This document shows positions 18,868 through 30,264 of a stretch of DNA of 41,942 nt, in pieces. The notes beneath the pieces are model-generated. The model saw only the letters and a program-made list of their open reading frames with translations. It ran no database searches and was not told the origin of the DNA. Where the stretch lies: positions 1 through 41,942 of IMG/VR virus record IMGVR_UViG_3300043493_000033, one strand, 5' to 3'. Each line of letters starts with the position of its first letter. Position 1 is the stretch's first letter. Both the position numbers and the translations under genes were made by a program. The stretch comes from a virus. Its lineage: Duplodnaviria; Caudoviricetes.

Positions 18868-20492
18868 AAGGCAGACTTTGCTGCCAACTCGGCATCGCTT
18901 AAGCCGCGCGGCAGGATCATCAGCTTCTCGATGTAGAAGCTCGCAGTGGACGCCACGTTGTTGCCGGTGCCGCCAAACCGCACCTCAGTGACGGTCGGCA
19001 GCGTAACGGTGGTGTCGAAAGCAGCAGCTCCTCCGCCCACCGACATGGCGCAGTCGTTGAGCTTGATACGCGCTGCCGCCGAGGCTGCGGTATTGGCCAC
19101 CAGCGTCGGCCCGATGATGGCTCCGACCGCCACGCCCCCGTCCACGACCGCCAGCCGCGCCGTTGTGTTGGCCACAAAGCCCGCGATCTCATTCGCCGTG
19201 CCATCGGTCAGCGCCACAGCGTATTTACCGTTGGCGATATTCGGCGTCGAAAACCGCGCGTAGATGGAATACTCGCTGCCGAGCGCCGGGATGGTGGACA
19301 GCAGGAACGTGTAATTGTCCGCCACTCGCGTGACCGTCGCCCCGAACGTCAGGATCGGCGACGTGGGCACAGTGCCAAGCTCGAGCTGCGCGTTGCTGAC
19401 AGTTCCAGTCACCGTCAGTGTCAGCGACGTCGATGTCGTCGAGAATGTCAGGGAAACCCGTGTTGTGGCACTGCTCCCCGTCAGCGGCCCGGCCGTCGAG
19501 GCCCCCGTCAGCGTGACCGTCCCGGTGCCCCAGAACGACAGGGTATAGGTTGTCAGATTGGCGACCGCAACAGTCTGCGTCGAGAGCGCCGCGCTGTTTA
19601 GCAGCATGTTGGTGGCTGCCAACTCATACAGCAAGCCCGTCGCCACATGCGTCACCACATCGTAGTCAACGGCCAGACCGGCACGCGCCAATGTCGTAGT
19701 AGGAAGGTAAATCAGTGGCGTAGAGCCGCGGTTGAGCTGCGCCCCCCACAGATATAACCCGGAACTTGCATTGCCGGCATAGGTGCCAACCTGGCCATTG
19801 GCGGTGCGGACAAGGAACGTCGGGCCACCAACAGTTGCATCCTTAACGAAGGTTATCGAGCAACGATACCAGCCACTGCCGACTGACGTGATGACCCCAC
19901 CATTCGCCGACGTGCCGACAACGCCATTGGTAAGATCGAACCAGTCGGCCAGCGTGAAGCCATTCAAGGGCACCATCGACAGCCAATTGCGCTCGGCGGC
20001 CTTGGCATAGACACTTAGGGTATATGTCATGCCCGTTATCCAGCCAGCGTTGGCGTGGATGAGCTGGTGGCTGCTGGTGTTCGCCACCTCGACGATCTTG
20101 TCTGCCGTCAGCGTCCCGTCCGGCGCGGTTGTCACGTTCGCCGTGACAGTTACCGTCGTGGTCGGATTCCACGGCGTCGTCTGATCAAACGCCTGCGACT
20201 GTATGCACATATTGTGTGGCGACCAGCCGAGGGCGCCGGCCACGTCGAAAACTTGCTTTGGGCTGGTTCCAGTATTCAGGTAAAACGTATTCAGTGCTGA
20301 CGCTACCGTCACGCCGGCCGTCTTCACCGCCACGCGCTGCGCGTCCGTCGTGTAGGTGAAGTCCGTCGCAAAGCCGTCCGTCTCATTGGCCAGCAGGGCC
20401 GCTCCGCCGACAGGGCCGGAAACACCACCGTGCGGTTTTGCCCCGAGCCGGCCGAAGCCTGTCCCGAGGCTGCCAACCCGCCCAAACGCCAT
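18864..20492 (-). CDS. Fibre/spike protein with carbohydrate-binding-like domains, 542 aa
   Basis: Start moved to ATG 20492. APDGTLTADK, YTLSVYAK, GWYRCSIT, LWGAQL, TNMLLNS, AQLE.G..PTSPI.T motifs. Confidence 0.7.
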   Translation of the reverse strand: MAFGRVGSLGTGFGRLGAKPHGGVSGPVGGAALLANETDGFATDFTYTTDAQRVAVKTAGVTVASALNTFYLNTGTSPKQVFDVAGALGWSPHNMCIQSQAFDQTTPWNPTTTVTVTANVTTAPDGTLTADKIVEVANTSSHQLIHANAGWITGMTYTLSVYAKAAERNWLSMVPLNGFTLADWFDLTNGVVGTSANGGVITSVGSGWYRCSITFVKDATVGGPTFLVRTANGQVGTYAGNASSGLYLWGAQLNRGSTPLIYLPTTTLARAGLAVDYDVVTHVATGLLYELAATNMLLNSAALSTQTVAVANLTTYTLSFWGTGTVTLTGASTAGPLTGSSATTRVSLTFSTTSTSLTLTVTGTVSNAQLELGTVPTSPILTFGATVTRVADNYTFLLSTIPALGSEYSIYARFSTPNIANGKYAVALTDGTANEIAGFVANTTARLAVVDGGVAVGAIIGPTLVANTAASAAARIKLNDCAMSVGGGAAAFDTTVTLPTVTEVRFGGTGNNVASTASFYIEKLMILPRGLSDAELAAKSAL

Positions 20493-20496
20493 TGGC

Positions 20497-20784
20497 CTAG
20501 CTGACCTCGGTGACGTGCAGGGTGCCGCCGGCCGAACTCTGGATGGCCGACACCTTCTCGCCCGCCGCGACCGTGAAATACTCCACCGTGTCGGCCGGCA
20601 TGTAGATGCCGGCTGTCGTGGCCGTGGGCGAGACGCCAATTGCGATGTAGCAGGCGCTCGTCGCACAGACGCGCACCTTCTGCACCCCGGCCGTGATGGT
20701 ATTGGCTACCGTCCCTGCTGTTCCCGTATAGGCGACCGACTGGTGCGTGCCGATGCGACCCGCACCCCAATATTGTGTTGCCAT
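20497..20784 (-). CDS. Small beta-rich virion protein (possible spike base)
   Basis: Start at ATG 20784 (GAGAGGG RBS), directly upstream of the fibre/spike gene. Confidence 0.65.
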   Translation of the reverse strand: MATQYWGAGRIGTHQSVAYTGTAGTVANTITAGVQKVRVCATSACYIAIGVSPTATTAGIYMPADTVEYFTVAAGEKVSAIQSSAGGTLHVTEVS

Positions 20785-20785
20785 A

Positions 20786-21043
20786 TCAGCCCTCTCTGAT
20801 GACGTGCCAGCGCTTTTCGGCAAACAGCGCGAGAACGGCATCGGCAATCCCGTATTGCCGCCTGCCGCCGCCGAGCCCTTCGGAAATGAGCGCGCGGACC
20901 TTCGCCGGGTCGACTACGTCGACTACGCTGCGCTCGGTCGGAATGATGCCCGTGACGATCTCATCGTCGCCCACATCGCCGCCCTCAAAGGCGGCGTTGG
21001 GCATGGCCGGACGCCGGTCCAAGGAGGCAGGCAATTCCGGCAT
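20786..21043 (-). CDS. Hypothetical protein
   Basis: Fills the gap between neighbours with 1-nt spacing. The start is uncertain. Confidence 0.5.
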   Translation of the reverse strand: MPELPASLDRRPAMPNAAFEGGDVGDDEIVTGIIPTERSVVDVVDPAKVRALISEGLGGGRRQYGIADAVLALFAEKRWHVIREG

Positions 21044-21044
21044 C

Positions 21045-21803
21045 TCAAGCCTTGCGCTTGGCATCCGCCTCTTCCTTGTCTGCCTTGGCCTTGGCGTCCT
21101 TGTCTGCCTTGGCCTTCCTGGCCTTGGCTGTGTCGCCGCTCCCGGCATCGAGCGCCTTGGTGACGACCCACTCGGCCTGGTGCATGCGCTCCACGATACG
21201 CTTTGCGCTGGCGTGATTGTCCCCAGAGCCGCCGAGCGTGCCGGCAATCAGCATCTGAATGTTCTCGTCGGGGATGTCCCCGCCCGACTGCACCTCGTCG
21301 AATTGAGGTGCTTCCTCCGGCACTTCCGGCAGCACATTGTCGGGACGCACGCCACCGCCAGGAAGCGGGGCGGGCTTGCCAGGCTTGATCGGGTTACCCG
21401 GCAGGGACTGGTCGGGCTTGCCGCCAGCGCCGGGCAGAGTGTTGTCGGGCGCACCGGGAAGCTGATTGCCGGGCTTCAGGCTCGTATCCGGCGGCTTGAT
21501 CGGGCTCTCCCAGCCGGGTGCATCGCCCTTCGCGTCGCCAGCCCGCAGGTCTGGATCGTCCATCGGGTCGTAGTGCGGCTTGTTCGCCATGGGTTTCTTT
21601 CCTCTCTTGGCTTTCGCCAGTGTTTGAGCTTTTTCCTTCACTCTCGTGGGCCTCGGCCCACGTTTTTGCGGTGTCTTGGTCGGCGCCATTGCCTTGCGCA
21701 GCCAATCGGGCGGCTCAGCCTTGGCCTGTGGCCTGGGCTTCGCCTTGGCTTTCGCCGGAGGGCGGGCCTTCGGCTTGTTCTTCGAGCCCTTCGGCCTGGC
21801 CAT
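21045..21803 (-). CDS. Basic, Pro-rich protein with PDxxLPG repeats
   Basis: GGGAGGAG RBS before MARPKGSKNK. Lys/Ala/Pro-rich N-terminus; a second in-frame start is possible at 21590. Confidence 0.7.
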   Translation of the reverse strand: MARPKGSKNKPKARPPAKAKAKPRPQAKAEPPDWLRKAMAPTKTPQKRGPRPTRVKEKAQTLAKAKRGKKPMANKPHYDPMDDPDLRAGDAKGDAPGWESPIKPPDTSLKPGNQLPGAPDNTLPGAGGKPDQSLPGNPIKPGKPAPLPGGGVRPDNVLPEVPEEAPQFDEVQSGGDIPDENIQMLIAGTLGGSGDNHASAKRIVERMHQAEWVVTKALDAGSGDTAKARKAKADKDAKAKADKEEADAKRKA

Positions 21804-22709: not shown

Positions 22710-23693
22710 CAATGTGTTACCAGCCCTTGCGGGCCGGGGCGGTCATTTCTGCCGCCCTCTCCGTCTTTCGAGCGGAGATCAGAACTATATCTTCACTTAC
22801 GATCCAGCTATCATTTCCAGATGGAAATTCTGCCCCAACTCCGCGCGCGTCGTTCGAGTGCCTATCCTCTTGACTGCGATTTCTTTGCCTCCGTCAACTC
22901 CGAGCCAAAAGCCTATTTTCTGGGGTTCTTGGCTGCTGACGGTTACGTGGCAAAGAGCGGCAAGTGGGTTGCGTGTTGCGTCTCGGAAACCGACGTTCAC
23001 ATCCTCGAAGAAATGCGCTTGGCAATGGGTAGCGGTGCTCCTATTGCCGCCAAAATCAGCCGAGGAGGTTATCCCAACACCAAACCCCAGCGCGTCATCA
23101 CCTTTTGCAGCCGAAAGCTGATTGGTGACTTGGCTTCGCTAGGCATCGTGCCGGGCAAATCCAAGACCCTCACCTATCCCCTAATCCCTGCCGATGTAGA
23201 ACGACATTTTCTCAGGGGGCTGCTTGATGGTGACGGATGGATCGGGCCGCGCCAGTTTGCATTTACAGGAACAGCAGACGTACTCGATGGCATATGCAAG
23301 GCGGTCTTACGCCACACAGGCCAAGCGCTGGCTCATTCCAAGTTTACTTCTGGCCACGGCAGGCTGATCGGTTCCTGGCGTGATCGAGACGTTCTCCGGT
23401 GGCTCTACACCGAAGCCGGTTGGTTCCTCCGTAGAAAACATCAGAAAGTTCTGGATAGCTGGACATAAGGCCGGGCACTCGCGGCTCCATTACTGCTTTC
23501 GCGCGGGAGCTAGTCGTTGAACCGTCACCGCCCCTAGGCCGTCTCCGGCTTACATGCGGCGCTTGGCTGCTGATTACCCAATCCATTGACTTTTCGAACA
23601 TTCGCGCTTGCCGTTGCCAGCTACGCTGTAGTGTCGATGGCTCTAAGGGCTTCCCAGACAATTCACCCGGTTTTACACGAGCAGATCAAGTTT
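22710..23693 (-). mobile_element. Group I self-splicing intron, 984 nt
   Basis: 5' exon ends in U and the intron ends in G. P1 CACGAGU/GCUCGUG with U.G wobble; P10 AACUUG/CAAGUU; P3 CCGGGU/GCCCGG. Core elements: P AAUUGUCUGGGAA, Q AAUCAGCAG, R GUUCAACGACUA, S AAGAUAUAGUUC. Confidence 0.93.
22821..23468 (+). CDS. Double-motif LAGLIDADG homing endonuclease, antisense within the intron
   Basis: AYFLGFLAADGYV and HFLRGLLDGDGWI motifs, plus LGIVPGKS. Confidence 0.9.
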   Translation: MEILPQLRARRSSAYPLDCDFFASVNSEPKAYFLGFLAADGYVAKSGKWVACCVSETDVHILEEMRLAMGSGAPIAAKISRGGYPNTKPQRVITFCSRKLIGDLASLGIVPGKSKTLTYPLIPADVERHFLRGLLDGDGWIGPRQFAFTGTADVLDGICKAVLRHTGQALAHSKFTSGHGRLIGSWRDRDVLRWLYTEAGWFLRRKHQKVLDSWT

Positions 23694-23851: not shown

Positions 23852-24940
23852 TTACGGGGACCGACTGCCGTTCATTGCCGCAATAAGCCTTGCGGCATCC
23901 TTGAGACTGCCAGTGCGGTCCAATTGGCGGTTGAGGTCTTTGAACCGAGCCTCTTGAGCCTCTCCCTTGGCGGGAGCGCTGCCCGGACGCTGGACAGGTG
24001 GAACAGGTGCGCGTGACGGTGACTTGGTGGCCTTAAGGGCCTGTCGATACTGGTAGCCATCCCATGCGAGCATCTGGAAGCGGTGGTCGTGGATCTGGAT
24101 TGGCAGGAACTCGGTTGCGGCCCGTTGCAGAAAGTCCTGCTCGAACCCAACCTCTCCCAGATAATCCATCATCCCTGCGACCAAGCCGGGATAGGCTTTT
24201 GGATCTTTCCACTCCGGAGCCTTGTCGGCGAACTTCTGCGCCTCCTCAGCCCTCCACGCCTCCGCGTTCTGCATGAACTGCTGATGCTGCAGTTGCTGCT
24301 GCTGGGCTTGCTGGGCCTGTTGCGCCTGCAGTTCGGCTGACGCATGCGTCAGCCGCTTGTAGGCCAAGTCCCATGCCTGGTATCGAAGCGGATCGTTACG
24401 TTGCCAGTCCTGCAGATCGTCCCAGGAGGGCGTTCCGAACTCTTTTCGATACTCGGCATCCAGCAACAGCGCCTGCTGCGGCAGCGACTGCTCGTATTGC
24501 CATCGTGCTTGCGCTTGTGCCTGCTCCGCCTGCTGCGCCAAGGCCTCGGCGGCCTTTCGCTGCTCGGCGGCTTCGTTCTGGCCGCGCCGCAATTCCAGCT
24601 CGCGTGTCCTGTCGAGCGCCAGGATGCGTTCCTGGGTGTCTCGGGGGAGGCTCGCAAAAGCTTCCTTGTCGGCTTTCGTCCATGACCTCGGGGCGTCGAT
24701 GGGCTTCTGAGAAGGGTCGTCGCTACCGTCAGTCTCGCCGCTGGGCCTTTCGGGGGCGGCGTCAGCACCATCTGGTGCCGAAGGTTTGTCCGTCTTACCG
24801 GAAATGAGATCCGCGGCCTCGCGCGCGGTAATTGGCGCGTCGGAGGGCGGCGGAGATGGAGGAGGAGTAGAAGGCTCGGGAACGGGCGCAATAGGCTCGG
24901 GTGCCGGCGCTCCCGCGTCGGGTTGGGTTGGCTCAGACAT
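23852..24940 (-). CDS. Capsid scaffolding protein
   Basis: Between portal and capsid. Pro-rich acidic N-terminus, APRSW..FASLP, Q-rich coiled coil, TGSLKDAA C-terminus. Confidence 0.8.
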   Translation of the reverse strand: MSEPTQPDAGAPAPEPIAPVPEPSTPPPSPPPSDAPITAREAADLISGKTDKPSAPDGADAAPERPSGETDGSDDPSQKPIDAPRSWTKADKEAFASLPRDTQERILALDRTRELELRRGQNEAAEQRKAAEALAQQAEQAQAQARWQYEQSLPQQALLLDAEYRKEFGTPSWDDLQDWQRNDPLRYQAWDLAYKRLTHASAELQAQQAQQAQQQQLQHQQFMQNAEAWRAEEAQKFADKAPEWKDPKAYPGLVAGMMDYLGEVGFEQDFLQRAATEFLPIQIHDHRFQMLAWDGYQYRQALKATKSPSRAPVPPVQRPGSAPAKGEAQEARFKDLNRQLDRTGSLKDAARLIAAMNGSRSP

Positions 24941-24953
24941 GAAGGGATTTCCT

Positions 24954-24985
24954 AGTTACGCCCAGTTACGCCCAGTTGCGCCCAG
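24954..24985. repeat. Three tandem 10-bp repeats AGTT(A/G)CGCCC
   Basis: AGTTACGCCC AGTTACGCCC AGTTGCGCCC AG in the scaffold leader. Confidence 0.85.
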
Positions 24986-24999
24986 GGCGAGATTTCAGA

Positions 25000-25299
25000 C
25001 TATTCCGAAGCGCTTCGGCGGGCCGTGATCTCGGCGATCTGCCGCTCCGCCAGTCGCCCATTGGCGACAATTGCCTCAAGGTGCGATCGCACTTTCCCGA
25101 CGATCGTCACCGCTATGTGAAGGTTCTTCCGGCCCTCGTCGTCACGCGGGCCCGACATCTCCCACGCCTCGTGATAGGCCGCCTTCAGGGCGTCGAACGC
25201 AGCAGCAATCGGCCCATCGAGCGCCGCCTGCACCTGTGCAGCCGTCGCCATGTCGCGGCGCAGGGCAAATTCATCGTCTGCCATGACAGCTTTTGTCAC
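25000..25299 (-). CDS. Conserved small protein downstream of portal
   Basis: Helical 99-aa ORF (AFDAL...W....D.EGR..L....G) in the usual post-portal position. Confidence 0.7.
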   Translation of the reverse strand: MTKAVMADDEFALRRDMATAAQVQAALDGPIAAAFDALKAAYHEAWEMSGPRDDEGRKNLHIAVTIVGKVRSHLEAIVANGRLAERQIAEITARRSASE

Positions 25300-25301
25300 C
25301 C

Positions 25302-27218
25302 CTACCCTGGCTCGCCGCCTATGTGCACGCCGCTCGTCCCGCCGCCATTCGAGCCCGGAGGCGGCATTGAGGCTTTGAGCTGCAGCCCAGCCATCGCAAG
25401 TTCGCGCTTCAATGCCAGTTCCGCCGCGAGCGTCTCCCGCTTCAGCATCAATTCGGCATCAATCTGCGCCCGCTTCAATTCCGCGTCGGCCTGCATCTGC
25501 TCACGCTGAAGCTGCGCGTCGAGCATGAACTTCTCACGCTGCAGCGCGGCATCCTGCTGCGCCTTGGCCTGCTGCATGGCCATGTCCTGCTGCGCCTGCT
25601 GTTGGCGCATCTGAGCGTCGGCCATAGCGCCCTGCTGACGCATCTGCATGTCAGCCTGCTTCAACTGCATCTCCGCCATGCCCTTCTTCTCCTCGGGAGA
25701 AGGCTCGGGAGGCTGCGGAGGCGTCTTGCTCGGATCGGTGAAGTAGGGATCAGGTGAGTTCAGCCCCGCCTTGCGCGTGAGTTGCTTGACCGTGTTGTAA
25801 ACCTGCTGCGGCCCAGCGAGCCCGGTCATCTTCGGGCTCGTCATGGCGTTGCCCTGGATCTGCATGATCTCGCGCAGCACCATGATTTCCTGGCTCTTGT
25901 CGCCGGAGCCAAGCCCGACGTTGATGGTGAGATCGTTGCGCTCGCGCCATTCCTGCGCGTCTACCTTCACCCACTGGCCGCGCAGCTTCACTGTCTCGGC
26001 CTCACTGGCGTTCTGGCGGATCGTCGCGTGCAGCAGCCAGAACATCTCCCGAATGCCCGTCTCGGCGAAGATGCGAGCGATGAGCTTCATCTTGGCGCGG
26101 GCGGCGTTCTGCGCGTCGAGCACGGCCCGCTCGCCGATGTTCTGCAAGGCGTTCGGGTCGAGGCCCTGGCCCTGCCGCGTCACACCCGTGCGCCACTCCC
26201 GCAGCGTGTCCATGTATTCCAGCATGGGAAACCCGAAGCTTCCGATCGGCTGGTTCGGGACAGGTGCGACCGAGCCGATGCGACGGGTGCGGATGATGCC
26301 GCCGACCCTATTCGACAGCACGTCGTCGATCGTGTCCTTTGTCGCCCCATCCTCAGCGACTTCCAAGCGCTGGTTGTTGGAAAAATAGACGTTGTCGAGC
26401 AATTGCCGGAGTAACGCAGTCTTAATCCTCTGAATGTCCATGACGAGGTCGGCAATGGACGTGCCATAGAAGCGGTGCGGATTGATGAACGGCGTCATGG
26501 CGGCAAAGCGCACCATGTCCGGCACGATCTCCGGGCGGCCCTTGCGCTTCAGGATCTCGCTACCGCTGCCAGCCGTCGTCACCCGATAGCGGCGCGGCTT
26601 GCCGTCGCCCTCATAGTCCATCATCACGTAGTGCTCGGTGACGCGGATCTGCCGGTTGGCCTTGTTCAGCCCCTCGGACCCCGACAATGCATTGTCGTCC
26701 ACCGTGTCGCGGGCGATCTCCTCCGTCGTGCCATCGCCGGCATAGTCGGGCAGCGCCTTGACCTGCTCCTTGTCGTAGCCGGCAGCGATAAGCTCGGCCT
26801 CCGTCTTCCTGACTTCGTGGTAGCAGTAGTCGCAGTCGCGCAGCATGACGGAGCGTTGCCGCCGCGAGACGCCAAACTCCTCCGGCGGCACGTTCTCGAC
26901 CCTGGCGCAGCCGTATTTGCGGATGCGGCTGATCTTCACGTCATGCACCGTCTCCGGCATGGGCGGAGGAGGTGGAGGCATTGGAGGTGGGCCAGGAGGC
27001 CCCTGCATGCCCGCTGGAGGCGGTGGAGCGCCAGGAGGCGGCGGAGGGCCGGGAGGACGCATCGGCCCGCCTGGCGGCATCCCTGGTGGCCCTGGCGGGC
27101 CTCCCGGCGGTGGCGGTCCCATGCCGCCAGGAGGCCCCATAGGCATGGCCCGCGGGTCAAGCCCGGGGGTTGCGCCGGGAGGCCCGGGAGGCTGCATGGG
27201 ATAGGGAGGCAGGGCCAT
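25302..27218 (-). CDS. Portal protein, C-terminal part (638 aa, poly-Pro N-terminus)
   Basis: VENVPPEEF, PHRFYGTSIADLVMDIQRIKT.LLRQLLDN.Y..N, RTGVTR..QGLD..AL, LIARIFAETG, NVGLG. Start at TGATG junction 27218. Confidence 0.88.
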   Translation of the reverse strand: MALPPYPMQPPGPPGATPGLDPRAMPMGPPGGMGPPPPGGPPGPPGMPPGGPMRPPGPPPPPGAPPPPAGMQGPPGPPPMPPPPPPMPETVHDVKISRIRKYGCARVENVPPEEFGVSRRQRSVMLRDCDYCYHEVRKTEAELIAAGYDKEQVKALPDYAGDGTTEEIARDTVDDNALSGSEGLNKANRQIRVTEHYVMMDYEGDGKPRRYRVTTAGSGSEILKRKGRPEIVPDMVRFAAMTPFINPHRFYGTSIADLVMDIQRIKTALLRQLLDNVYFSNNQRLEVAEDGATKDTIDDVLSNRVGGIIRTRRIGSVAPVPNQPIGSFGFPMLEYMDTLREWRTGVTRQGQGLDPNALQNIGERAVLDAQNAARAKMKLIARIFAETGIREMFWLLHATIRQNASEAETVKLRGQWVKVDAQEWRERNDLTINVGLGSGDKSQEIMVLREIMQIQGNAMTSPKMTGLAGPQQVYNTVKQLTRKAGLNSPDPYFTDPSKTPPQPPEPSPEEKKGMAEMQLKQADMQMRQQGAMADAQMRQQQAQQDMAMQQAKAQQDAALQREKFMLDAQLQREQMQADAELKRAQIDAELMLKRETLAAELALKRELAMAGLQLKASMPPPGSNGGGTSGVHIGGEPG

Positions 27219-27598
27219 CAGTAGCGCGCCTTGCGCATCTTCATCACGGCCACGTTCTCCCAATTGGGATTGCCGGCCTGCTTGTCGGCGAGTGCCTCCT
27301 CAAGGATCTTCAGGTCTGCCTTGGCACCGCGCAGTTCAGCTTGGGCGACCTCCAGACGCACCGACATGCCGAGGTAGTCGCCATTCACGCCATGCACATG
27401 CAGGTCGTGCTTTGCGCGGTCCAGTTCACGCTTCATCTGCTTCAGCGCATCCTTGTGGTGCTTATTCTCCTCAAACCAAAAGTGGGTCCTCTTCTCCTCG
27501 GCAAATACCATCTCAATCAGCGTCGCTTTATTCAGCCGACGTATCCTGTCTTTACGCCTCTCTCTAGATGGCGGAAGATCGCCCTTGCGCTTGCCCAT
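27218..27598 (-). CDS. Hypothetical coiled-coil protein inserted between the portal halves
   Basis: 126-aa ORF coupled by TGATG at both ends; no portal similarity recognised. Confidence 0.7.
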   Translation of the reverse strand: MGKRKGDLPPSRERRKDRIRRLNKATLIEMVFAEEKRTHFWFEENKHHKDALKQMKRELDRAKHDLHVHGVNGDYLGMSVRLEVAQAELRGAKADLKILEEALADKQAGNPNWENVAVMKMRKARY

Positions 27599-28167
27599 CA
27601 GTAAGCGGCCTGCTGCTCGTCACGCGGCTGCTGGCCGGGAATGCCCTGCCGCTCAGTGTGCTCGATGATGTCGATGTCCTTTGCCTGCTTCAGCATTCCG
27701 TAGGCCGCCTCCGGCAGGCCCCAGAAGCTCTCCTCAATGCTCTCTTCCTTGTCTTCCCAATATACTTTCACGATCGCGACCTTCGACAGCAGCGCATCCT
27801 TCACAAAGGTATAGTCGATAAGAAACCCATTGTTTTTCTGCGTGAATACATAATTGACGTAGTCGGTTTCCTGCTGCGCCGCCTCTTCGTCCTCCGCACC
27901 TGTCGGGACGAACTCCACCACGTCGTCGCCGCCGTGCAGCACCTCCATCATCGACGGCATCAGGCCCTCGACGGCATCCGCCACGTCGGACGAGACGGCC
28001 TTGGAGCGATCGGCAGGAGCGGGCATGTCGCGTGCCATGTCGCCCTGGTAGTAGTCGAGCGCCCGCGCCCGCTCCTCGGAGAGCTTGCTGCTCTCGGCTG
28101 CGCTAAGCGCGTCGCTCTTCTCGCCCTTGAGGATGGCCTGCACCTCGGAGACGGACAGCTTGGCCAC
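27598..28167 (-). CDS. Portal protein, N-terminal part (189 aa)
   Basis: ERARALDYYQG, RSKAVSSDVADAVE..MPS, VEFVP...EDEEAAQQETDYVNYVF..KNNGF, KDALLSK.AIVKVYW. Confidence 0.88.
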   Translation of the reverse strand: MAKLSVSEVQAILKGEKSDALSAAESSKLSEERARALDYYQGDMARDMPAPADRSKAVSSDVADAVEGLMPSMMEVLHGGDDVVEFVPTGAEDEEAAQQETDYVNYVFTQKNNGFLIDYTFVKDALLSKVAIVKVYWEDKEESIEESFWGLPEAAYGMLKQAKDIDIIEHTERQGIPGQQPRDEQQAAY

Positions 28168-28170
28168 GCG

Positions 28171-28341
28171 CTACTCTTTCGGCAGGTCTTGGTTGGGTGC
28201 AGGAGGCTCGTCGTGCAGCCCGCTATCCTTGCGCGGGTCTTCCGAGGGCTTTGGCTGCGTGCCGCCGGGAGATACAATCCCGCCACGGCCGGCCTTGCTC
28301 TCGCCCGGCTCGGTGTATTCGTCTTCCTTCGGATCAGACAT
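28171..28341 (-). CDS. Small disordered protein, 56 aa
   Basis: AAGGAA RBS before MSDPKEDEY; ends 3 nt before the portal start. Confidence 0.55.
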   Translation of the reverse strand: MSDPKEDEYTEPGESKAGRGGIVSPGGTQPKPSEDPRKDSGLHDEPPAPNQDLPKE

Positions 28342-28554
28342 TGTTTGGTTCCTTGTGCTGGTGGCCCTCCCGGCCGACCGTGTCGGAGTGCGCTCAGGCT
28401 GGGTGCATTCGGCCCGGTTTTGCGCGGCCGGGAGGGCCGTGAACTCTACCAGGACACCCGCCGCCATAGCCCCCAGCGCGCCGGCCAGGTGCGGCTCATG
28501 CGCTGGCAGACGCAGCGGCTAGCGCCCCGGCGTCTTCGTGGCATAATGGCCCCC

Positions 28555-28839
28555 GTGAGCGACTGGATCACATCGGCCAAAGCAGAGGCTGCTTGGCGAG
28601 AGCGCAATATCGCACTCTGCCGCCTGTTTCTGACCACCGACATGACGGTTAAGGATGTCGCCAAGCATTTTGGTATTTCCGGCACGACTGTGCGCGTTGT
28701 CCTCTTTCACTTCGGCATCCCCAGCAAGCGCCGGCATGCTCCGAGGCATGCATGGGAACGCCAGCAGGGATTTGGCAGGCGCAGGGATCAACTCCCTCCC
28801 GACCTGCAGGCCCTGATCGAGAACATGCCGTCTCAATAG
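28555..28839 (+). CDS. Small HTH DNA-binding protein, counter-oriented
   Basis: MTVKDVAKHFGISGTTVRVVL HTH. TGnCATAAT ends 7 nt before GTG 28555; ATG 28546 is an alternative start. Confidence 0.65.
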   Translation: MSDWITSAKAEAAWRERNIALCRLFLTTDMTVKDVAKHFGISGTTVRVVLFHFGIPSKRRHAPRHAWERQQGFGRRRDQLPPDLQALIENMPSQ

Positions 28840-28953
28840 GGTCTCGCGCGCGCAGTTAGTTATAATACTTATAAACCAGTTCCTACACCGCGCGGGCACA
28901 CGCGCAGCCTTTAGCACTTTCACGTAGGTATCAGCAGGCGCGCGCATATGGGA

Positions 28954-30264
28954 TCAGACGATGCCAAGCCTCTGATACACCAACTTGCGTCCGAAGCCCG
29001 CCGACCGAGACGGCTCCTCGTAGCAGATAGCCATCAAGCCGAATGCGTCCGCGGCATGACTGCTCCAATCATGCTCCGGCCCGAGGCCCAACTGCCGATC
29101 GTCGTCCCTGCGCTCGTGGTAATAGCCCAGGGCGTCCCTTCCCGCCTCTGTCGTCGCCTCGTTGAACCACATGCGCGGGAATAGCCGCCGCACCGCTTCC
29201 ACTCGCATCATGGCGGCGCCCCTGCCCTGGTTTTTCACTGGCGGTTCGACGGAGAAGCCTGCCTCCCGCAGATGGTCTTCATACCGCTTGCCGGTGATGG
29301 CGTTAGCGTTCACGCCGTCGTGCGGGAGGTAGCAGATGGCCTTGTCGTATTTGCGCTGGCGCAGCTCGTCGACGTAGTAGGCGAGCACCTGGCCCATGCC
29401 CTCGATGTAGTCGAGGACGCGGATTTCCTGTCCGACCCACTGAACAATCCAGATCGCCATGGCATCGGCGGAAGCCCCTGAGCCTCCCAGGTCAAAAAAG
29501 GCTCTGAGCGGTAGTAGCGGGTCAGCGGACACTCGCCCAATTCGTCCCTGCGCCTTGGCCTCGTTGAGGCCGGCCGCGAAATAAGCGCCCTCGAACGCCT
29601 TCGCATAGCCACCTTCCCAGATGTGATCATACCGCTCTGGATAGCGTTCTTGGTCAATTTCACGCTCTGAGACCAAAACTTCGGGGAACCAGGGGTTGTC
29701 CCGCCAATTCGCCTCGACGACGACTGCGCCGGGCGGCTTCTGCTGGCGCAGGAACTCGTCGATTGCGTCTGACTTGCGGCGCGGGTTCCAGGATGCCCAT
29801 ATTTCGGAGTTCTCGGCACGAATTGTCGGACGAAGCAGCGCGAGGGAGCGATGCGAGAGCGTCTGTGCCTCCTCTATCCAGGCGATACGGAAGCCTTCCA
29901 GGCTCTTGATGGACTCCGCCGTGTGATCCTGCATGCCCTGAAAGATGATCAGCCCTTTGCCCGGCGCCTCTATGCGGTCGTCGAGGATGCGAAACAGCGG
30001 GCCGACGCCGAGCTGCGCGATCTTCTGCTCGATAAGGCGCTTGGCGGATTGCGTGAGAGTACGCTGCACCTCGCGGATGCAGACGACTGCGGTGCCTGGG
30101 TGGACGATGCACTCCTCGACGAGGGCCTCCGCGAAGAAGTGTGACTTGCCAGAGCCGCGGCCTCCGTAGGCGCCTTTGTATCGGGCTGGCTCGAGGAGCG
30201 GCTCGAAGACGGGCGCCGTCTTGATGTCGAGGTTGCCGTCAAGCGGCTCTGGAATTGCCAGCAT
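28954..30264 (-). CDS. terL: Terminase large subunit (PBSX/XtmB-like)
   Basis: Walker A GGRGSGKS, CIRE, Walker B WIEEAQ, SWNP, nuclease FDLG, LPHD, SHAADAF. Confidence 0.95.
   Translation of the reverse strand: MLAIPEPLDGNLDIKTAPVFEPLLEPARYKGAYGGRGSGKSHFFAEALVEECIVHPGTAVVCIREVQRTLTQSAKRLIEQKIAQLGVGPLFRILDDRIEAPGKGLIIFQGMQDHTAESIKSLEGFRIAWIEEAQTLSHRSLALLRPTIRAENSEIWASWNPRRKSDAIDEFLRQQKPPGAVVVEANWRDNPWFPEVLVSEREIDQERYPERYDHIWEGGYAKAFEGAYFAAGLNEAKAQGRIGRVSADPLLPLRAFFDLGGSGASADAMAIWIVQWVGQEIRVLDYIEGMGQVLAYYVDELRQRKYDKAICYLPHDGVNANAITGKRYEDHLREAGFSVEPPVKNQGRGAAMMRVEAVRRLFPRMWFNEATTEAGRDALGYYHERRDDDRQLGLGPEHDWSSHAADAFGLMAICYEEPSRSAGFGRKLVYQRLGIV

Follow-up and report, generated by a model that had tools for sequence, protein, structure and literature searches.

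A phage portal is the ring that DNA passes through on its way into and out of the capsid, and portals are among the most constrained of phage proteins. In the virus record IMGVR_UViG_3300043493_000033, analyzed here over its whole 41,942-nt stretch (the window), the portal gene is broken into two open reading frames (ORFs), and a third gene lies between them. How can an essential ring protein be made from such a locus, and what is the third gene doing there? An earlier reading of the letters alone, made with no database searches (the sequence-only reading), took the locus for a genuine two-chain portal. We conclude that the portal is encoded by two conserved genes, cut at a wing hairpin loop of variable length, and that the two polypeptides likely assemble noncovalently into the subunits of a 12-fold ring (12 + 12 chains), a reading to which we give a probability of roughly 0.85. 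A two-chain portal is supported by the conservation of the split, by the variability of the gap in frame and distance, by selection on both halves, and by a particle-forming relative, and it is from these that we infer the assembly.

Two portal genes and a gene between them

The features of the locus are as follows.

27598..28167, minus strand: portal N-piece, 189 aa, GTG start; matches PF23899 positions 2-168
27595..27603, minus strand: junction 1, N-piece stop overlapping the middle-gene start (TGATG)
27218..27598, minus strand: middle (passenger) gene, 126 aa, ATG start
27215..27223, minus strand: junction 2, middle-gene stop overlapping the C-piece start (TGATG)
25302..27218, minus strand: portal C-piece, 638 aa, ATG start; matches PF23899 positions 167-593 and then continues as a Gln/Ala-rich helical barrel region
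26955..27218, minus strand: proline-rich head of the C-piece, residues 1-88, an expanded remnant of a variable loop

The N-piece comprises the N-terminal wing region up to the first hairpin strand and then a free tail of ~17 aa. Both pieces match Pfam family PF23899 (SU10_portal; cutoff, 30 bits), the N-piece with an E value of 1e-52 (179.7 bits) and the C-piece with an E value of 1e-135 (453.6 bits). The two matches tile the profile from 2 to 593 without profile overlap or loss, PHROG 1216 concurs, and there are no further PF23899 matches in the window genome. The sequence-only reading had placed the portal motifs on a 189-aa and a 638-aa ORF with a 126-aa ORF between them, all chained by TGATG stop/start overlaps, and every one of these coordinates and overlaps holds. 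It had also noted the same 9-mer at both junctions. In the window this is correct, since the minus strand has exactly two copies of TACTGATGG (27215 and 27595), but the repeat is peculiar to the window genome: the two junction 9-mers are identical in none of the 8 other middle-gene carriers that have both junctions in view, and TGATG alone is constant. A target-site duplication was rejected as an explanation for the 9-mer because the repeat is absent from those other carriers. Whereas the solved SU10-type portals have a single polypeptide per subunit, here the subunit is encoded by two ORFs that lie 380 nt apart and differ in frame. Thus, the window portal is a variant of the SU10-type portal and not an ordinary member.

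The cut falls in a variable wing hairpin

An AlphaFold model of the single-chain relative L083 (mean predicted local distance difference test score, 75.6; 21 sequences) has strands at residues 163-171 and 179-198, with a hairpin loop at residues 172-178 between them. The N-piece aligns to L083 residues 1-173 (57% identity) and the C-piece from residue 179 onward (48% identity). The wing-stem-clip-crown-barrel fold is seen for the single-chain L083 model alone, and the window pieces are represented in it by their alignment. The best fold matches of the model are the Pa223, SU10, and PaP3 portals, and the N- and C-pieces align directly to residues 25-172 and 181-680 of the solved Pa223/PaP3 portals (E values of 6e-26 and 5e-67). 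In single-chain relatives the cut loop is 5 to 85 residues long and often Pro/Gln-rich (the loop length of L031 was left out because it was mis-anchored). Because single chains tolerate such a range of lengths there, often with Pro/Gln-rich sequence, the loop is probably exposed and free of load. The earlier placement of the break in a variable surface loop therefore stands, with surface exposure resting on this length tolerance. The head of the C-piece is 8 to 89 residues long in the window and its direct-junction relatives.

This position agrees with what has been described for portals. Of the portal domains, the wing varies most, and a dodecameric ring at a unique vertex is a general property of portals (PMC7617512); the N-terminal residues of the SU10 portal lie in the wing and touch the capsid (PMC9509320); and the Pa223 portal was modeled as a single chain, residues 2-639 (bioRxiv 2025.06.11.659172). 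The C termini of the N-pieces are biased across 80 split loci (TS in 25, AY in 16, and AS in 7), which probably reflects an overlapping Shine-Dalgarno site together with shared descent.

The split recurs among related phages

An IMG/VR scan with the N-piece as the query gave 255 matches, of which the best 80 were kept. In this set plus the window, 59 of 81 loci are split, 16 are single-chain, and 6 have no C-part in the retrieved DNA. Among 58 GTDB loci, 34 are split (several of them decayed or ambiguous), 6 are single, and 18 have no C-part within 4 kb; in one of these 18 that was examined, G001, the C-piece lies ~5.5 kb off. After removal of 12 near-duplicates and 4 broken rows, the pooled set held 104 nonredundant loci with both halves, and 80 of these are split in this same hairpin loop, a share that is biased upward by a query that is itself a split half. 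All of the 17 closest IMG/VR loci (N-pieces 76 to 98% identical) stop here where the sequence reaches. The distance from the N stop to the C start ranges from 2 to 3,760 nt among the 80 split loci, with frame offsets divided 43/28/9, and 27 of the 80 have a bare stop/start overlap with nothing between the halves. Two apparent splits (G226 and G037) are loop frameshifts rather than gene boundaries and were excluded from the counts. Microcystis phage PP496355, annotated with "Portal protein (x2)," has a 56-codon upstream ORF and a single-chain portal, which is different from this split.

Judged from these loci, the split portal is a widespread, recurrent architecture and not a one-off. A literature search that covered mostly titles and the beginnings of abstracts, and few subscription papers, found no prior description of a two-gene split portal.

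Both halves are maintained by selection

The sequence-only reading saw decay in neither half, and the ratio of nonsynonymous to synonymous substitution rates (dN/dS) confirms purifying selection on both. Compared with the window, all 10 relatives tested give values of 0.086 to 0.242 for the N half and 0.065 to 0.171 for the C core, and in four other split groups the values are 0.00 to 0.13 (10 of 10 pairs).

A cultured relative has the same split. The Bradyrhizobium prophage ppUSDA76Be-2 (OP596614) carries it with a bare TGATG; in GenBank its 184-aa N-piece is annotated as "hypothetical," and its 553-aa C-piece (19585-21246; L141:6555-8216) is unannotated. A search of the OP596614 record, which does not include the host chromosome, gave no second PF23899 match. 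This prophage has been assigned to a spontaneously produced podophage seen by transmission electron microscopy, and its reads were enriched in the phage fraction (PMC10127595); the word "portal" is absent from the main text of that paper.

The middle gene as a passenger in a proposed cargo slot

The 126-aa protein is predicted by a structure model to be all-helical, with four helices, two of them long, and its C-terminal ~31 residues are conserved. It matches no Pfam or PHROG family, and Foldseek against BFVD gave 0 matches at an E value of ≤0.001. Its family is small (10 homologues; 3 clusters at 50%). A profile search of 1.84 billion representatives returned 3 clusters of the family, along with 3 long repeat proteins that were rejected as coiled-coil matches; two 33-residue matches (L147 and L148) were rejected as too weak. 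Matches at 0.90 to 0.91 to unnamed viral clusters in the ESM Atlas are leads only. All 10 well-matching family members with context, the window included, sit in the portal seam.

The gene is missing from L001, L003, L005, L010, L012, and L014 and from most split loci. The N-pieces of L001, L003, and L005 are 95 to 98% identical to that of the window, and L001, at 98%, is without the middle gene. A DNA contig of run X4 omits exactly 380 nt of the seam. Unrelated ORFs occupy the seam elsewhere, a 76-aa gene in L011 and others in L032, L045, L062, L120, and L151. The divergence of the middle gene is decoupled from that of the portal (in L008 the N-piece is 94% and the middle protein 40% identical; in L016 these values are 79% and 52%), and its dN/dS is 0.39 to 0.73. 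Its last 31 codons are more constrained, with a ratio of nonsynonymous to synonymous differences (pN/pS) of 0.36 versus 0.81. Comparison of near-identical relatives thus indicates that the 126-aa gene is a dispensable, exchangeable passenger. The sequence-only reading had supposed that it probably inserted at a preexisting stop/start junction and had suggested looking for relatives cut at the same site without the insert; the 27 bare loci among the 80 are such relatives, and in other loci other genes fill the slot. Presence of the gene is patchy on the portal tree, and a gain here and a loss in the closest sisters are both compatible with it.

Among 21 loci with inserts of 100 to 400 nt, 13 have an ORF that starts on the N stop, and 11 of these 13 ORFs, which cover six unrelated ORFs, also end on the C start. 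Because 11 of the 13 small inserts keep overlaps at both ends, the double-ended stop/start overlaps suggest a translational relay to the C-piece. A further short coupled ORF is found in the seam of L151. In L120, a 61-aa seam gene (L120:4495-4677, plus strand) has a weak Acb2/Tad1 hairpin match (E value of 1.8e-4, below the cutoff) and is a possible antidefense sponge protein.

Larger, variable seam cassettes of 1 to 3.8 kb are present in L091, L099, L101, L119, L122, and L123 and in other Bradyrhizobium chromosomal loci. Among their genes are M23 peptidases and Ivy lysozyme inhibitors, as well as pairs of unknown ORFs that recur, and they resemble cell wall hydrolase/immunity cassettes. A scan that covered 57 of 110 candidate ORFs in the large chromosomal Bradyrhizobium inserts found M23 peptidases in 4 of 57 and Ivy inhibitors in 2 of 57.

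How two polypeptides could make one portal

In the mechanism that we propose, the N-piece (189 aa) and the C-piece (638 aa) would be translated separately and would cofold by making the beta-sheet and helix contacts that are also found in single-chain portals, with the cut loop turned into two free tails. The stop/start overlaps would couple translation, with ribosomes that end one ORF restarting on the next, and would keep the pieces near 1:1. The seam would be a true gene boundary in a late operon and could therefore serve as a cargo slot. The exchangeable 126-aa passenger would stay outside the ring, yet its reading frame would have to be kept intact and in phase so that ribosomes are passed on to the C-piece, whose own Shine-Dalgarno site is weak in the window. 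The passenger would come and go, or be exchanged for another gene, through recombination between the conserved portal sequences on either side. Bare junctions are enriched in Shine-Dalgarno pairing (median of -6.8 versus -3.0 kcal/mol; 27 related, nonindependent loci).

Several observations weigh against this account or limit it. The window junctions themselves have weak, background-like Shine-Dalgarno scores (-2.9 and -2.7 kcal/mol), which lend no support to independent initiation there, and coupling in the window is assumed. The middle protein has some function, because its C-terminal motif is constrained. In an unbiased family-level sample (250 genomes plus a split center genome), the strong matches were 8 full-length single chains, 1 unbroken partial chain, 2 true splits besides the center genome, 2 frameshifted copies, and 1 fragmented copy, so that single chains outnumber true splits (8 versus 2, plus the split center genome). 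Visible decay is seen in some of the chromosomal Bradyrhizobium copies that have kilobase inserts (G001, in which the C-piece is in two fragments; L108; and L140), and because of this not every split locus is functional. Genome G129 has both a single-chain and a split SU10-type portal (C1:160162-162006 and C3:1292514-1294673), so a helper supply of portal is possible in principle. If the split genes were in general defective and helper dependent, with particles built from the single-chain portal of another prophage, both the decayed copies and G129 would fit. We consider this very unlikely given the strong purifying selection on both halves in deep clades, the intact terminase, scaffold, and capsid genes around the split portal, and the OP596614 record, which has the split portal only and yet is reported to be packaged (PMC10127595).

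Other explanations would join the halves or give the middle protein a place in the ring. Recoding, by a -1 frameshift or by ribosomal bypass of the T4 gene 60 type, might make some full-length portal: the halves abut in the -1 frame in 27 of the 80 split loci, the stop follows the last N-piece codon as it does at bypass sites (10.1101/2022.08.31.505936), and a Tyr codon in the window C-piece head could be read by the take-off tRNA. However, an in-frame X XXY YYZ heptamer lies in the open overlap at 0 of 27 bare junctions, in L074 and L078 the -1 frame is shut 3 nt ahead of the start codon, only 5 of 28 have a landing codon that matches exactly, and the Tyr is changed to Phe in several close relatives. 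Omission of the window's 380 nt still leaves a stop, and gaps of up to 3,760 nt in three frames are beyond any one mechanism, all of which makes recoding improbable. That an intron or a split intein rejoins the halves at the RNA or protein level is less credible still, even though the window genome does carry a group I intron in its capsid gene. The Rfam scan that detects this capsid intron (E value of 3e-9) gives nothing credible at the seam (best E value of 0.38, a small nucleolar RNA family), and RNA structure at the seam is no stronger than that of shuffled sequence (z of 0.17). Neither a Cys in the last 22 N-piece residues nor [HF][NQ][CST] in the C-piece head occurs in any of the 80 split loci, there is no Pfam intein match, and the bare junctions offer no room for an intron or intein; the scan, the RNA folding, and the motif test over 80 loci all agree with the earlier statement that intron and intein hallmarks are absent. 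A role for the 126-aa protein as a third portal component or as a dedicated assembly chaperone for the halves would fit the seam location of all 10 well-matching family members with context, the coupled translation, the constrained C-terminal motif, and the long helices. Such a role is nonetheless doubtful to about the same degree as recoding, since relatives with 95 to 98% identical N-pieces and most split loci manage without the protein, unrelated ORFs substitute for it, its dN/dS is 0.39 to 0.73, and its divergence is decoupled from that of the portal. Finally, the window contig is metagenome derived and loop frameshift errors do occur in some genomes (G226 and G037), which would fit a misassembly or a sequencing error. 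Here, an 831-nt contig of run X2 covers 27148-27978 and a contig of run X1 covers the upstream junction (27250-27637), both with 0 differences, although one of these two runs may be the window's source sample. The identical three-gene layout is also found on independent IMG/VR contigs, and it recurs in many independent contigs and complete genomes, so that misassembly, which the sequence-only reading had named as a way in which it could fail, is already refuted.

Recurrent fission, re-fusion, or both in the portal gene

When 80 concatenated cores (57 split and 23 single) are placed on a tree, the split/single label requires 5 changes, and one split clade is rejected on a 32-row subset (approximately unbiased test, P = 1.8e-6). 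The tree thus indicates that a single origin without reversals is rejected and that fission, re-fusion, or both recur. The window clade is sister to single-chain L046 and stands apart from the Bradyrhizobium split clade, and split L074 is sister to single-chain L064. L090 has a single-chain portal (L090:4001-6136, plus strand) but branches deep within a split clade, for which re-fusion is the simplest explanation. The tree does not separate repeated fission from a single early fission followed by re-fusions. On balance we lean, with distinctly less assurance than for the two-chain portal itself, toward a broader view in which alphaproteobacterial podophages have repeatedly and reversibly made their portal two-chain (12 + 12) by cutting one wing hairpin. 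The seam would then be a selfish-friendly cargo slot: a coupled gene lodged there would become obligatory to keep open, as the ribosome relay to the essential C-piece, and would be made at portal stoichiometry late in infection.

Comparison with known systems

The window portal has its sequence family and its gene order in common with the single-chain SU10/PaP3/Pa223 podophage portals (PF23899; PDB 7z44, 7sxk, and 9nwm), and the modeled fold of a single-chain relative, L083, matches theirs. Those solved portals are one chain of 705 to 747 aa, whereas the window portal is cut at ~172-181 (PaP3/Pa223 numbering), with free tails and a third gene between the pieces. Another likeness is to the NrdA gene of Aeromonas phage Aeh1, split by mobE, in which an essential phage protein is likewise encoded by two genes with an intervening gene (PMC3045599). 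The Aeh1 NrdA pieces reassemble noncovalently with no RNA or protein splicing; their cut ends carry new tails, which are essential, and the break was caused by the insert, a homing endonuclease. In the window system, unlike in Aeh1, the seam exists without the insert, its tails are hypervariable, and what is cut is a structural ring protein; the middle gene has no family match and an all-helical model, which gave no homing endonuclease identity. By analogy, the portal split likely works like the Aeh1 NrdA gene in pieces.

There is also a likeness to the split-intein fractured genes with free-standing endonucleases, in which a conserved phage gene is in two pieces with a free-standing gene between them (PMC2677866). 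The fractured loci described there are DNA synthesis and repair enzymes, whereas the portal seam is without intein hallmarks or an endonuclease. The T4 gene 60 bypass shares a stop codon at the break in an essential gene (10.1101/2022.08.31.505936), but the portal seam has no conserved gap length, matched codons, or RNA structure. A further paper from the literature search, PMC4837284, deals with nrdD.

A natural two-chain portal, if true, would mean that continuity of the wing chain is dispensable. The split would separate the capsid-contacting N-terminal wing part from the channel-forming rest for genetics, and the seam would show structural biologists a place where tags or insertions are tolerated; ppUSDA76Be-2 of B. 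elkanii offers a cultured test system. The split would also explain annotation failures such as those of both OP596614 pieces, and recurrent fission and fusion at one loop would be a clean case for how essential genes split.

Genome setting and other features

The window covers nearly all of a temperate podophage-like genome (completeness estimate, 93%) with genes for integrase, primase-helicase, GcrA, terminase, scaffold, SU10-type capsid, and adaptor. Because GcrA is present and the nearest prophage relatives sit in Bradyrhizobium genomes, the host is probably alphaproteobacterial. The public runs that hold the window DNA best are soil metagenomes. The gene order is terminase-portal-scaffold-capsid, and the terminase, scaffold, and capsid neighbors of the portal pieces are intact. 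The genes flanking the portal are as follows.

28954..30264, minus strand: large terminase (Terminase_3), upstream of the portal in the same head operon; Pfam and PHROG matches
25000-25299: conserved 99-aa gene, between the portal C-piece and the scaffold gene
23852..24940, minus strand: scaffolding protein (phrog_3927), downstream of the portal; PHROG match

No tRNA genes were found in the window, and a promoter/terminator scan of 24900-29200 gave signals at chance level only. Two unknown ORFs (28171-28467 and 28519-28947, both minus strand) lie between the terminase and the portal; the length of the terminase-portal interval also differs among close relatives, which makes it a second likely cargo slot. 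The major capsid gene is split by a 984-nt group I intron (23693-22710, minus strand; RF00028; E value of 3.3e-9, just below the gathering score). Without the intron the capsid frame has 318 codons, which makes it as long as the OP596614 capsid protein. A 215-aa LAGLIDADG ORF (22821-23468, plus strand) runs antisense to the capsid intron and the capsid gene.

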